Source of the DNA: Candidatus Jordarchaeales archaeon
GTDB lineage: Archaea > Asgardarchaeota > Jordiarchaeia > Jordiarchaeales > Freyrarchaeaceae
Reading direction: 5' to 3'
DNA length: 32,000 bases
NCBI GenBank assembly: GCA_038889235.1
Contig: JAWAHN010000002.1
Coordinates: forward strand, 344,356-376,355
Both the position numbers and the translations under genes were made by a program. Shown here piece by piece: positions 3,143-6,993 of this stretch (position 1 is the first letter of the stretch; every line of letters starts with the position of its first letter). Below the pieces are notes generated by a model, which saw only the letters and a list, made by a program, of their open reading frames with translations, did no database searches and was not told the DNA's origin.

Positions 3143-3240
3143 AGACGCTGCCTGTAGCGCACAGGGCCTAAAGCGACTTCGAAGCTGGGAGAACCCCCGC
3201 ACCCTCCAAAATTTTTAGTACGCAAATGCAGTTAACGGGG

Positions 3241-3261
3241 AACCTCACCCTTGGTGAGGTT
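3241..3261. terminator. Perfect 9-bp stem hairpin between convergent genes
   Basis: AACCTCACC-CTT-GGTGAGGTT in the 3143-3291 gap. The terminator role is inferred. Confidence 0.35.
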
Positions 3262-3291
3262 AAAGCACTCCATCCTAAACTTGGCTCAAAA

Positions 3292-6200
3292 CTAGTTCGC
3301 CGAATCAAACACTTTTACGAGCTTCACTTCATGCCTGGGTGTCTGCACTACTTCAGATGGTAGTAGTTTATCTTTCACGTAGACTAATGCTTCCAGCGTG
3401 ACTATTGTGGTGTTAGGTACCTGCGGGGGCTTCCACGCCACACTTACCGTTTTCTCCTGCTGCTTAATCTCTCCGCTCCAAACTTTCCGTGTTTTCGTCA
3501 GAACCCTCGCAGTTAAGACAACCTTAATCGGTTGCGCCACTTTCTTCTTAACGTTGAATGCCAGTTTACTCTCTTTTCTCTCCTCCAGCATGGACGGGAG
3601 CTTGGTGAATGCGACCTTCACGAGAGGGCTGGTTGGCGGGCTTACCATGAACATTGGAGAAGTCTCCGTTAGCACGAAGGAGCCTTCCTGCGTTTTGAAC
3701 TGTAGCATGGCTTGCAAGTACGTCTTCTTTCCCGCAAGCCACGGTGGAATCTCAATTTTCCCGTGAACCTTCACTCCCTTCCTAGGTTTAAGCTCAAGGC
3801 TTAACTTCTCCTCAACCTCAACTTCCCCCTGAAGTGTAAAAAGGCGGACCACCCCTCTAGCTTTTACCTGCCGCTCAGCGGCATTCTCTGCTTCGAACTC
3901 ATACGCGACCTGACCACCAGCTTGCACATCCCTCACTCTAAGTGTTACCTCACTGATGGTAATCGGGGGACGAGGAGTTACATTAACCTCGACTTCTTCA
4001 CTATAAACCCTAGCTCCGTCTGCCTCCAAACTTATCTTTAACTTGTGCCTTCCCTTCTCCTCCCAGGCTTTGACTGTCAGTGGCAAAACATGCATCCCTT
4101 CGTCCACGACATACTCCTTCGACGTCACGGATCCGGCCGTCAACGAAACACTTAGCTTTACCGGCTTCATAACCCCTTCAACTCTCACTTTGAGCTTCAC
4201 CACAATGGTCGACGACGCTGCAACATTCTTCGGGCACTCGATGCCGGAAACCTTGACCGCCTTCTTAGGCGGAAGAGCGGTAACATGAACGACCCCCGTC
4301 TTACACTCCGCTAGAACCTCCTCACCATGAACTACACGGCACACGAAGGCGAAGCTCCCCTCCGTAACATCCTTGCCAACCTTAACCTTGCAGGACAGCC
4401 TCTTTGACTGCTTCACAACAAGCTCCCTATAATCCATTAGCCTCCTCTCCCTTCCCTCCAGGAAGATCTCAGCAAAGAAGGGGCCCGCAACGTCTGGGTT
4501 CAAGTTCACAACTTCGAAAACCGCCTTGCAAGTCTCACCCCACTTAACCACGTGCTTGGAAACACTACCGGAAACACTCAACCGAGGTCTAAGGGAAATA
4601 TGTGAGACGTCGATGGCTCTTGAAACATGGGCCGCAGCGACTGCTGTTTTGCTCTCTGCACGCTCCACCCTTCTACGTGAAGAGGGCTGAATACGAGTGA
4701 GCTTTGACTGCTTTGCTGTCTTCACAGCCCTCTCTGCCTTAGTTCTATCCTGAACGACAGGAGTTTTAGGCTTCGCAACGCTTACCTGTGCTTCTCGCCT
4801 AACTTGTGCCGTTGGCGGGGTAAGCCTGGTGACTACTATAACCTTTGGCTTAGCCTCTGCCTCTCTAATGGTTACAGCCTCTTTCTTCTTGGCCTCCGCT
4901 GTCTGTGCGACAAGTTCCTGTCTTGTTGCGGTGGTCTTTGTTTCCACTGCTGCTACACTTGGCCTTTCAACTCTCACCACCGGGGTTTTATATTCTGCCA
5001 CTGTTTCCCCCATGTAGAGTACTTGAAACCTAAGTGTGTACTCCCCCTCCTCGCCCGACGGAATAGGCACACTCACTACCGCAGGGATGTTTATCTTTTT
5101 CGTCAGAATAGGGGATATCTTTCCACCCTTTTCCGCTGTAACAACTAGTTTGTACTCCCCTCTAAACTCGGGAGGCCTACTCTCGACCTTCACCTTAAGC
5201 TCCCTAGTCTCCCCCACTCTGACGGTTTTAGGCGTGGTCCCAACAGTCACCTTCACGTTAGGTATCGCGGTGGCTTTAAACGTCCTAGTTTCTGCTTCGC
5301 AGCCCCCCACTCCCTCACCTTTCAAGGCAAACTTCAGACGGCACGTCTTAGTTCCATGGAACGCTTTGAGAGGGATTTTGAGGGGGAGCTGCGAGCTCGT
5401 GACAATAACAGTCTTACCTTTCCTCAAAAATATCTTCTTCACAGCCGTCTGGATCGTCTCGCTTTCATCGGCGAAGGTCACCTTCGCCACGAGCGTTGCC
5501 TGCGCATCCCCATCGCTGCTCACTTCAACAGTGAATGGTATGATCTCCTCTGCAACCACCATGGACGCTGTCGTCTCTGCTTTCATCGACACCTTGACCG
5601 CTAGCTTTGGTTTCTCTACAGATTCCACCCTTGCCTCTCCGAACGCTTCGATCAACGGGTCCCCTGGACCCGTGCAATACTTCCTAGTGATCTCCATCAA
5701 GCTGCGGGCTACGACCCCCATGTCTCCCCCCGAGCTACTGTAGAGGTATAGCAGGTAGTCTGCAGGGGAGCACGGGGGTTCAAGCTTATCTGAACCGTAG
5801 ACGGATACAAGGAAAGGCTTGAGGTAGTCTTGGAACCCAAGCTCATCTACTTCCTCCTCAACGTACTTTAGCATCCCCCGGACGGCTTCGAAAAGCTTAG
5901 AGTAGGGCTCTCCTGAAGGAGAGGTGTTGTAGAATGATGCCTCCTTCTCCTTGAGCCCCTTGTCCGGGAAAAACTTCCCCATTAAACCATAGAGTATCGC
6001 TTTTTCCCTGTTCTCAACTACCACGCTCGAGCTGACCCTTGGAACCCTAACTCCTTTACTTGCTAGTTTGACCGCTTTGAGCGCCAGCGCCTGTAGGAGA
6101 GCTACAAGCGCCAACCTTCTTGCTGCACTGAACTGTGAGTCGAAGACTCTGACCTCTATTGTTCCATAGTCTGTGAAGGGGAAAACGTCAACGTACCTGT

Positions 6201-6993
6201 CATCCGGCGGCTCCCTCATAACTACAGAGTCAAAAGCTCTCCTATCCAGTGACTCTAAGTAGGGTATGTAGTGGTCTTTGTCTGCGGGCCCCATCTGGCT
6301 CGTGTTGTACTTAAGCCTTATGTCTCGAACACAGTCCTTTCCGATTATGAAGACTTTACCCTTCCTCTGAACTTTGACAGTCCCAGTAACCCCTTCCCTG
6401 ATGAATGGAGAGTTCACCGTGAGAGCTATCAGGTGAGGGACAAATGCGCGTATCATGTTGTACACAGCTGGTGCTTCCTCTTTGCTCACTCCCACGTGGT
6501 AGTGGTCTCCAAAGGTTACCCCGCTCCTATACTCTTCCTCGAAGGGGTTGAAACCTATAGAAATCAAGTGGTATCCTGAAGGGAGGGAGTCGTATGCCAC
6601 GCTATAGAGCGTTTTAATCCACCATTCAAGCTCCTCCATAAATCTGCACGGAGGAGTTACGAGCTCCAAGATCCAGGTTATCTGGCTCACGTTCGGGTCT
6701 GGTCCGAGAACGTCGACGTCGGCAGCTCCACGAGGGGTCCTATAGGAGACCACAACGTAAGGTAGTCTCTTCCCCCTTCTCTCTTTCTCACTAAAAGAGA
6801 CGTTAATGACGTTATCTGAAACCTCAGCTGGCGCGTCCGCGACAGCCTTCTGCAAGTTTTTCAAAGCGTTCCCCATAAGGTGCTTCCACACTTGGATTAG
6901 GGTTGCCCCACGTAGCAGTCTACCCTTTGAGTCGACCACTTGAACCTCCATCTCTATTCCTTGAGTGAAGGGGAGCTTGTGCATTTCAACCAC
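3292..6993 (-). CDS. GCS2/YbdK-like carboxylate-amine ligase (N-terminal about 450 aa) fused to about six beta-sandwich (Ig-like) domains and a low-complexity linker
   Basis: GCS2 motifs in order: GIEMEVQVVD, ILELVTPP, GDHYHVG, HLIALTVNSPF and DVFPFTDYGTIEVRVFD. The C-terminal 770 aa shows repeated Val-rich alternating beta-strand blocks of about 100-110 aa. No signal peptide or TM helix is visible. Confidence 0.8.
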   Translation of the reverse strand: MVEMHKLPFTQGIEMEVQVVDSKGRLLRGATLIQVWKHLMGNALKNLQKAVADAPAEVSDNVINVSFSEKERRGKRLPYVVVSYRTPRGAADVDVLGPDPNVSQITWILELVTPPCRFMEELEWWIKTLYSVAYDSLPSGYHLISIGFNPFEEEYRSGVTFGDHYHVGVSKEEAPAVYNMIRAFVPHLIALTVNSPFIREGVTGTVKVQRKGKVFIIGKDCVRDIRLKYNTSQMGPADKDHYIPYLESLDRRAFDSVVMREPPDDRYVDVFPFTDYGTIEVRVFDSQFSAARRLALVALLQALALKAVKLASKGVRVPRVSSSVVVENREKAILYGLMGKFFPDKGLKEKEASFYNTSPSGEPYSKLFEAVRGMLKYVEEEVDELGFQDYLKPFLVSVYGSDKLEPPCSPADYLLYLYSSSGGDMGVVARSLMEITRKYCTGPGDPLIEAFGEARVESVEKPKLAVKVSMKAETTASMVVAEEIIPFTVEVSSDGDAQATLVAKVTFADESETIQTAVKKIFLRKGKTVIVTSSQLPLKIPLKAFHGTKTCRLKFALKGEGVGGCEAETRTFKATAIPNVKVTVGTTPKTVRVGETRELKVKVESRPPEFRGEYKLVVTAEKGGKISPILTKKINIPAVVSVPIPSGEEGEYTLRFQVLYMGETVAEYKTPVVRVERPSVAAVETKTTATRQELVAQTAEAKKKEAVTIREAEAKPKVIVVTRLTPPTAQVRREAQVSVAKPKTPVVQDRTKAERAVKTAKQSKLTRIQPSSRRRVERAESKTAVAAAHVSRAIDVSHISLRPRLSVSGSVSKHVVKWGETCKAVFEVVNLNPDVAGPFFAEIFLEGRERRLMDYRELVVKQSKRLSCKVKVGKDVTEGSFAFVCRVVHGEEVLAECKTGVVHVTALPPKKAVKVSGIECPKNVAASSTIVVKLKVRVEGVMKPVKLSVSLTAGSVTSKEYVVDEGMHVLPLTVKAWEEKGRHKLKISLEADGARVYSEEVEVNVTPRPPITISEVTLRVRDVQAGGQVAYEFEAENAAERQVKARGVVRLFTLQGEVEVEEKLSLELKPRKGVKVHGKIEIPPWLAGKKTYLQAMLQFKTQEGSFVLTETSPMFMVSPPTSPLVKVAFTKLPSMLEERKESKLAFNVKKKVAQPIKVVLTARVLTKTRKVWSGEIKQQEKTVSVAWKPPQVPNTTIVTLEALVYVKDKLLPSEVVQTPRHEVKLVKVFDSAN

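Follow-up and report, generated by a model that had tools for sequence, protein, structure and literature searches.

A GCS2-type ligase with an Ig-domain arm and conserved vWA-protein and hydrolase partners in Asgard archaea

Carboxylate-amine ligases of the GCS2 family (PF04107), such as YbdK of Escherichia coli (1r8g) and Salmonella (1tt4), are stand-alone enzymes of about 370 residues. In the eukaryotic glutamate-cysteine ligase (GCL) holoenzyme a ligase of the same superfamily, GCLC, forms a heterodimer with a non-catalytic partner, GCLM, and the PafA/Dop enzymes of Actinobacteria, members of the same glutamine-synthetase-like superfamily, set a precedent for a ligase that joins a protein carboxylate to a protein amine and is paired with a reversing enzyme. 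Arrays of immunoglobulin (Ig)-like domains of the CARDB, MG and GH2 types (CARDB structure 3idu, complement C3/C5, alpha-2-macroglobulin) are normally extracellular; the large TRAPP subunits carry cytosolic domains of the Ig/ASH type. Here we describe a gene in a 32,000-nucleotide stretch (the window) from the genome of an uncultured hot-spring Asgard archaeon, a Candidatus Jordarchaeales archaeon (contig JAWAHN010000002.1, positions 344,356 to 376,355). In its product an N-terminal GCS2-type ligase domain is fused to six Ig-like domains that make up a long arm.

Within the known GCS2 ligase family this protein is a variant that is new in architecture and function. Beside its gene lie genes for a protein with a Cdc48-N-like barrel and a vWA domain (the vWA protein) and for an Amidohydro_2 metal hydrolase, and this trio recurs in other Asgard genomes. 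We judge it about an even prospect that the ligase and the vWA protein make up a cytosolic, macromolecule-directed amide ligase complex, with a non-catalytic Ig arm for reach or docking and with the hydrolase reversing or processing its product.

The ligase domain and its Ig-domain arm

GCS2 was the sole Pfam match to the whole protein (34.4 bits against a cut-off of 21, E 1.9e-8). The catalytic motifs GIEMEVQ (E14/E16), LELVT (E110/T113), DHYHVG (H164/H166), NSPF (residues 194-197) and IEVRVFD (E280/R282/D285) had looked intact in an earlier note made from the letters of the window alone, and an alignment of residues 1-460 with 24 relatives agrees: the motif residues are invariant or at least 90% conserved, N194 being merely the majority residue. 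A profile search of PDB sequences aligned them with the corresponding motifs of YbdK (ExE, HxH, SPF/Y and ExRxxD). An AlphaFold2 model of the same residues reached a predicted template-modelling score (pTM) of 0.90, and its best PDB match in Foldseek was YbdK (1tt4/1r8g, template-modelling (TM) score 0.74 by target), followed by plant GCL and GshA. Yeast GCL was a weak match, as were PafA/Dop (E 1.6e-5 to 6e-4, TM score 0.30-0.46) and the glutamine synthetases, both far behind YbdK; the ligase shares no sequence family with PafA/Dop. By profile, motif and fold the domain belongs to the GCS2 superfamily. When residues 1-460 were searched against the ESM Atlas, one of the three nearest feature clusters was a 331-residue GCS2-like family annotated mostly from tailed viruses (Uroviricota; score 0.94), which we treat as a lead only.

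Within the superfamily the domain stands apart from YbdK. NCBIfam models of YbdK and GshA match it down to E 6e-22, yet all stay far below their curated equivalog or subfamily cut-offs (TIGR02050 and NF010039-45; the best score is 78.4 bits against 176.4, the rest 35-69 against 332-437). The domain is about 90 residues longer than YbdK, with conserved inserts at residues 28-60 and 200-270, and is followed by a 770-residue Ig arm. In a maximum-likelihood tree of 127 domain sequences (quick search, midpoint root, five near-duplicate rows left out), the 101 rows of the subtype group in a clade separate from the canonical short enzymes, with a Shimodaira-Hasegawa-like approximate likelihood ratio test (SH-aLRT) support of 100.

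These results bear on the alternative that the ligase is a small-molecule enzyme, making a gamma-glutamyl or similar amide of a free amine. Its product would be the precursor of a low-molecular-weight thiol or, as the Puu and ergothioneine pathways illustrate, a metabolite that is glutamylated transiently; the hydrolase would act at a later pathway step, the vWA protein would be a regulatory or modifier subunit like GCLM, and the Ig arm would serve only oligomerisation or localisation. The nearest solved relatives (YbdK, plant GCL and GshA) are indeed amino-acid ligases, ligase and hydrolase pairs are common in gamma-glutamylation pathways, and the genome holds no other GCS2/GshA homolog at E <= 0.001 to supply such a function. 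We nevertheless rate this alternative as rather unlikely. The NCBIfam scores far under cut-off and the separate clade argue against it, across the loci compared the trio has neither a transporter gene nor a further biosynthetic gene as a conserved neighbour, and the genome carries two paralogous sets, each with its own vWA protein and hydrolase. The partners and fusions of the ligase are moreover protein-binding modules: Cdc48-N, vWA domains with a metal-ion-dependent adhesion site (MIDAS), Ig arrays, coiled coils, zinc ribbons and giants of 2000-3800 residues.

The ligase and its arm are encoded by a single uninterrupted open reading frame (ORF) of 1233 codons, far longer than the canonical family members of about 360-380 residues. 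Translation could begin at the GTG at 6993 or at an in-frame ATG three codons on, at 6984, which is the start of the 1230-residue database copy. DNA contigs from two further samples follow the window colinearly and carry the ORF without an indel; this assembly may derive from one of those samples. In a metatranscriptome library of another study, contigs 95-99% identical to the window span the vWA gene and several stretches of the ligase gene gap-free, one of them crossing the ligase/Ig junction (5559-5881), although RNA-library contigs do not prove transcription. One RNA run (X7) contained none of the stretch, which is not evidence of absence. The 149-nucleotide spacer between the convergent vWA and ligase genes (3143-3291) differs in a related strain from RNA-library run X4, with single-A insertions after 3207 and 3287; one X4 contig covers the vWA gene plus the 3' end of the ligase gene.

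Twenty-seven database proteins match the ligase over its full length, all from Asgard archaea and all with an N-terminal ligase and a long tail. At least 25 independent assemblies contain full-length relatives, and we found neither a misassembly nor homologs split into a GCS2 enzyme and a secreted CARDB protein. The fusion is a conserved architecture and not an assembly artefact.

A Kyte-Doolittle scan gave one hydrophobic 19-residue window in the ligase (residues 294-312), which is the conserved buried helix after the ExRxxD motif. The protein begins directly with catalytic strand 1, so it has no signal peptide. The same kind of sequence scan found no signal peptide or membrane helix in the vWA protein, the hydrolase or the upstream coiled-coil protein. 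Judged by its sequence, the ligase-Ig protein is cytosolic, as the earlier note had read it.

In an AlphaFold2 model of residues 455-1233 (mean predicted local distance difference test score (pLDDT) 80.6, most Ig-domain blocks above 85), beta-sandwiches occupy approximately residues 468-577, 578-680, 801-905, 911-1008, 1009-1120 and 1125-1230. A disordered linker at residues 681-800 (pLDDT below 50 throughout and 24-39 in its core) divides them into the groups of two and four that the letters had suggested. No Pfam Ig, CARDB (PF07705) or MG model matched the arm at E <= 1, and the fold matches listed were all generic (CARDB, GH2 Ig-like and MG domains, transglutaminase barrels). Foldseek matches to Ig/MG arrays of complement, alpha-2-macroglobulin and ciliary central-apparatus proteins had TM scores of 0.13-0.26, so the arm does not share the arrangement of those arrays; it differs from the extracellular arrays also in having no secretion signal and in being fused to an ATP-dependent enzyme. 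A search of the ESM Atlas with the arm returned first a 986-residue GCS2 cluster of Thorarchaeota and then archaeal CARDB proteins. A proposed likeness to the large TRAPP subunits gained no support beyond the fact that both are cytosolic beta-sandwich arrays: no TRAPP chain was among the matches listed in three structure searches of the arm, in which single domains were not searched alone.

The arm evolves faster than the enzyme. In relatives whose ligase domain is about 58-60% identical the arm is about 24% identical, and its few near-invariant positions are prolines, glycines and one tyrosine. The full set of six Ig domains recurs in each of the two families of the window's order and in a Hermodarchaeota protein, Hodarchaeales-type proteins are without domains 1 and 2, and the number per lineage is six, about three or, as in family f9, none; the linker varies from 107 to 236 residues. 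As relatives without the Ig tail keep the same partners, the arm is accessory. In the window's protein it has a net charge of +45, against -5 for the ligase domain, and the tails of 25 of the 26 orthologs range from +15 to +100. Basic charge as a universal property of the arm was rejected, since it holds for the ortholog group and not for the tails of the paralog or of family f7.

With two thirds of the residues in non-catalytic Ig domains, and CARDB/S-layer-type archaeal proteins as the nearest shape matches, one could suppose that the arm performs the main function, as a structural scaffold or surface-layer-like component, and that the ligase domain is vestigial. We consider this very improbable: the ligase domain is the best-conserved part of the protein and its catalytic residues are maintained as described above, no signal peptide is present, and relatives without the tail exist.

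Directly upstream of the tail-less ligase of family f9, in a Promethearchaeota-type genome (G146, locus L014, 6866-8728), lies a conserved 620-residue protein without a Pfam family. Its N-terminus resembles a CARDB-type beta-sandwich, and it could be a detached arm. An ESM Atlas look-alike search with this protein found only its own unnamed cluster.

The partner genes and a predicted complex

The hydrolase, vWA and ligase genes are adjacent or within 10 kb of one another in the window and at loci L001, L006, L007, L013, L014 and L016. At the loci of family f2, which belongs to the window's own order (L001, L007), the trio is adjacent, and the vWA protein and hydrolase are 70% and 43% identical to those of the window. 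The vWA figure is not a comparison between classes, an interpretation we dropped because the L001 contig, labelled Lokiarchaeia, groups with family f2. The Hodarchaeales-type loci (L006, L016) have co-directional hydrolase, ligase and vWA genes separated by gaps of a few bases, with 45% (vWA) and 35% (hydrolase) identity. In family f9 the hydrolase (27% identical, E 4e-37) comes immediately after the tail-less ligase, with a vWA homolog 10 kb away; in family f7 a vWA homolog lies 7.7 kb from the ligase. A 2740-residue giant variant likewise has vWA and Amidohydro_2 neighbours, and the giant-protein locus L010 has two vWA genes and an Amidohydro_2 gene.

A second copy of the layout lies on the same contig, about 88 kb upstream of the window (G000:C2:255682-264181; locus L013, 4682-13181). 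There, Amidohydro_2 (504 residues) and vWA (496 residues) genes are convergent with a 1180-residue GCS2-plus-tail gene, which is preceded by genes for proteins of 248 and 385 residues, the latter a coiled-coil protein. Between the two copies, identity is 42% for the ligase domains and 34% for the vWA partners, and the tails are without significant similarity.

The vWA partner is itself well conserved. Family members across Asgard lineages are 44-87% identical to the window's protein, apart from one divergent member at 31%, and the MIDAS residues D191, S193, S195, T316 and D351 are invariant. A profile search of PDB sequences matched it solely to ITIH, complement C2 and Cdc48-N/double-psi barrel proteins; DEPDC5/Iml1 was not among them. 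In a protein from a JGI metagenome contig (P0091; locus L009, 8001-10889), a vWA protein like that of the window (P0030; E 1e-15) is naturally fused to the ligase subtype in 962 residues without an Ig tail.

Modelled as a complex, the ligase domain and the vWA protein gave a median interaction prediction score from aligned errors (ipSAE) of 0.75, against 0.00 for the best of three controls. Of the 80 solved complexes used in calibration 58 attained this ipSAE mark, as did 2 of the 110 mismatched pairs; these counts hold only roughly here, where our own alignments were used. Three runs agreed in at least 48% of contacts, with a partner pLDDT of at least 81. The predicted interface comprises ligase residues 28-33, 101-107, 156-158, 204-220, 231-241, 259-267, 327-340 and 365-366, which are largely family-specific inserts and loops beside the catalytic strands. 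On the partner it comprises residues 44-47, 71-76 and 101-107 of the Cdc48-N part and 205-212, 248-257, 290-294 and 421-425 of the vWA part. Among the residues predicted to be in contact are K331, Y335 and G339-K340 of the ligase and D46 and N74 of the partner. Measured against the whole protein, buried core included, interface positions are more conserved in the vWA protein (0.72 vs 0.62, p 0.005), and the difference in the ligase is not significant (0.73 vs 0.69). No similar complex appeared among solved structures in PDB-sequence profile searches with either partner's alignment. Gene linkage, the natural fusion and the complex model together support docking of the vWA protein on the ligase domain. 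The pairing recalls the GCL holoenzyme, although GCLM and the Cdc48N-vWA protein are not related.

For the Ig array, the earlier note had proposed a protein substrate or a scaffolding role. The surroundings of the ligase, with a Cdc48N-vWA partner, a fusion and a modelled complex, favour a protein-interaction context; the modelled docking falls on the ligase domain, not on the Ig array, and lends the role proposed for the array no support.

Table 1. Coordinates of the ligase gene, its domains and the neighbouring genes in the window
Feature	Position	Strand	Remarks
Ligase gene (P0001), 1233-residue GCS2-type ligase with Ig-domain arm	3292..6993	-	ORF and full-length homologs
Ligase domain, residues 1-460, YbdK/GCS2-fold carboxylate-amine ligase	5614..6993	-	metal/ATP motifs intact; conserved family-specific loops at residues 200-270
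Ig-like beta-sandwich domains 1 and 2, residues 463-680	4954..5607	-	AlphaFold2 model; net charge +10
Disordered linker, residues 681-800	4594..4953	-	pLDDT and composition; rich in Ala, Val, Thr, Lys and Arg; net charge +14
Ig-like beta-sandwich domains 3 to 6, residues 801-1230	3304..4593	-	AlphaFold2 model and composition; net charge +21
vWA partner, Cdc48-N-like double-psi barrel plus vWA, 445 residues	1805..3142	+	isoelectric point (pI) 4.8; convergent with ligase; MIDAS D191-x-S193-G-S195, T316, D351
Hydrolase partner, Amidohydro_2 metal hydrolase, 472 residues	297..1715	+	HxH motif
Upstream coiled-coil protein (P0029), 508 residues	7003..8529	-	stop 9 nt before ligase start (GTG 6993)

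The gene upstream of the ligase is of doubtful membership in the module on sequence comparison. Its coiled-coil product is kept within the window's family (499 residues in L003-L005), but we rejected it as a universal member: it has no similarity to the upstream genes at f2 and Hodarchaeales-type loci, and its match to the paralogous locus is no more than a weak coiled-coil one. At the f2 loci (L001, 5438-7776; L007, 5344-7727) a conserved group of genes precedes the ligase: one for 325-338 residues and, divergently, those for an Arf/Ras-type small GTPase and a 210-217-residue protein; the L001 copy of the latter has a weak TFIIE-alpha-like winged-helix match. This upstream group is absent from the window.

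Distribution and architectural variation

When 301 sampled genomes of the phylum were scanned whole, 169 proved to carry the ligase subtype (E <= 1e-30), as did 62 of the 90 high-quality genomes, and where a family has the subtype, nearly all of its genomes carry the module. The uninterrupted ORFs encode 1228-1410 residues in the window's own order and about 980-1160 in several other families. A profile search of 1.84 billion representative proteins returned 96 at E <= 1e-30, after which the scores drop to ordinary YbdK-like proteins of about 360 residues.

In the domain tree, the window's protein falls inside a 50-row group (support 99) in which, bar a few truncated sequences, the N-terminal ligase is followed by 480-950 further residues. 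The sister assemblage is more varied in layout. It includes a ligase with a tail of about 680-720 residues (among them the paralog of this genome), a ligase with an N-terminal extension of 100-130 or 250 residues and without a tail, a ligase with a 600-residue extension and C-terminal zinc ribbons, giants of 2200-3800 residues with the ligase near the C-terminus, and one vWA-ligase fusion. In giants P0072, P0080, P0081, P0083, P0086, P0087 and P0096 (2200-3800 residues) the C-terminal-side ligase stands behind very acidic N-terminal regions (net charge -96 to -161). On a contig labelled Hermodarchaeota (L008, 1-6881), tandem ligase paralogs of 940 and 1335 residues are followed by a gene for 666 residues, with no vWA or hydrolase gene seen in the 15 kb covered.

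Fast-diverging tails and highly variable architectures are also features that a defence or conflict system might show, with the conserved ligase as effector and the Ig arm or other variable domains sensing an invader. The sole suggestion of such a role from gene context is the vWA-ligase fusion, which lies at the end of a contig with a defence-island-like set of genes (DNA methylases, Mom, SLATT, TIR and QueC/QueF/TGT); the mostly viral GCS2-like cluster of the ESM Atlas could be read in the same direction, as a lead only. We think a defence function improbable. The PADLOC defence models gave no match for ligase, vWA protein, hydrolase or fusion, and in Jordarchaeales the module sits in a stable neighbourhood of housekeeping genes common to the genomes (FtsZ, Spt5, DTD2, shikimate genes). 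It is present in nearly all genomes of the carrying families, and the conservation of the vWA partner across Asgard lineages is unlike that of typical defence genes. PADLOC matches of the coiled-coil protein were set aside as spurious coiled-coil matches.

Proposed function and meaning

As a macromolecule-directed amide ligase, the protein would supply the catalytic activity of a cytosolic complex that only Asgard archaea and some of their archaeal relatives have. Because the YbdK/GshA-type active site is fully conserved, the GCS2 domain is expected to use ATP and Mg to convert a carboxylate to an acyl-phosphate, which would then be joined to an amine. Family-specific loops round the mouth of the active site (residues 28-33, 101-107, 156-158, 204-267 and 327-340) would dock the Cdc48N-vWA protein, and since the metal-ion adhesion site of that protein is invariant, its likeliest roles are to deliver or hold a protein or peptide substrate or to serve as the substrate. 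The Amidohydro_2 enzyme, to go by its linkage, would most likely remove or process the amide product. The six Ig domains and their basic linker may be a non-catalytic arm with which the enzyme reaches a large target or is spaced or anchored on it. Its net charge, fast divergence and dispensability in relatives suggest that this target is probably polyanionic (an acidic protein assembly, nucleic acid or a membrane surface) and that the arm is needed neither for catalysis nor for binding the vWA partner.

A more specific version, which we hold as possible and tentative, makes the trio an Asgard write/erase system for an amide-bond protein mark, in which writing would fall to the Ig-armed ligase, erasing to the Amidohydro_2 enzyme and the role of substrate adaptor or reader to the Cdc48N-vWA protein. 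Such a system would resemble pupylation or tubulin glutamylation but be built from other parts. Unlike PafA/Dop, the ligase is linked to neither a Pup-like tag nor a proteasome, the window and L013 neighbourhoods containing no proteasome gene, and its candidate eraser is an Amidohydro_2 TIM-barrel hydrolase, not a ligase paralog.

Several observations weigh against a ligase directed at macromolecules. No substrate, product or tag emerged from the analysis, and no conserved small Pup-like ORF was found in the modules. Characterised relatives (YbdK, GshA and plant GCL) use free amino acids, by analogy with which a small-molecule product is possible. The part of the hydrolase as a putative eraser is drawn from gene linkage. 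The score of the predicted complex is the model's own confidence, not a measurement. The charge of the arm varies, the tail of the paralog in this genome being acidic (pI 5.2) and that of family f7 near neutral (pI 6.2).

Full-text searches found no description of this protein or of the trio, an older amidoligase survey lying outside their coverage. In a review of archaeal thiols, Asgard archaea are mentioned for GshA matches only. A paper on a Klebsiella fimbria was set aside as a source on a relative, since it concerns an ATP-grasp enzyme.

No known organisms are closer to eukaryotes than the Asgard archaea, and protein machines that are conserved in them but still unexplained are a likely place to find new cell biology. 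More than half of the genomes sampled from the phylum carry the ligase subfamily described here, often as two copies. Its fused arm indicates that Ig arrays of an extracellular type can be used inside an archaeal cell. If its product is a small molecule, the enzyme would point to a so far undescribed metabolite shared by these organisms; if proteins are what it modifies, it would represent a new post-translational modification system in the lineage that led to eukaryotes.

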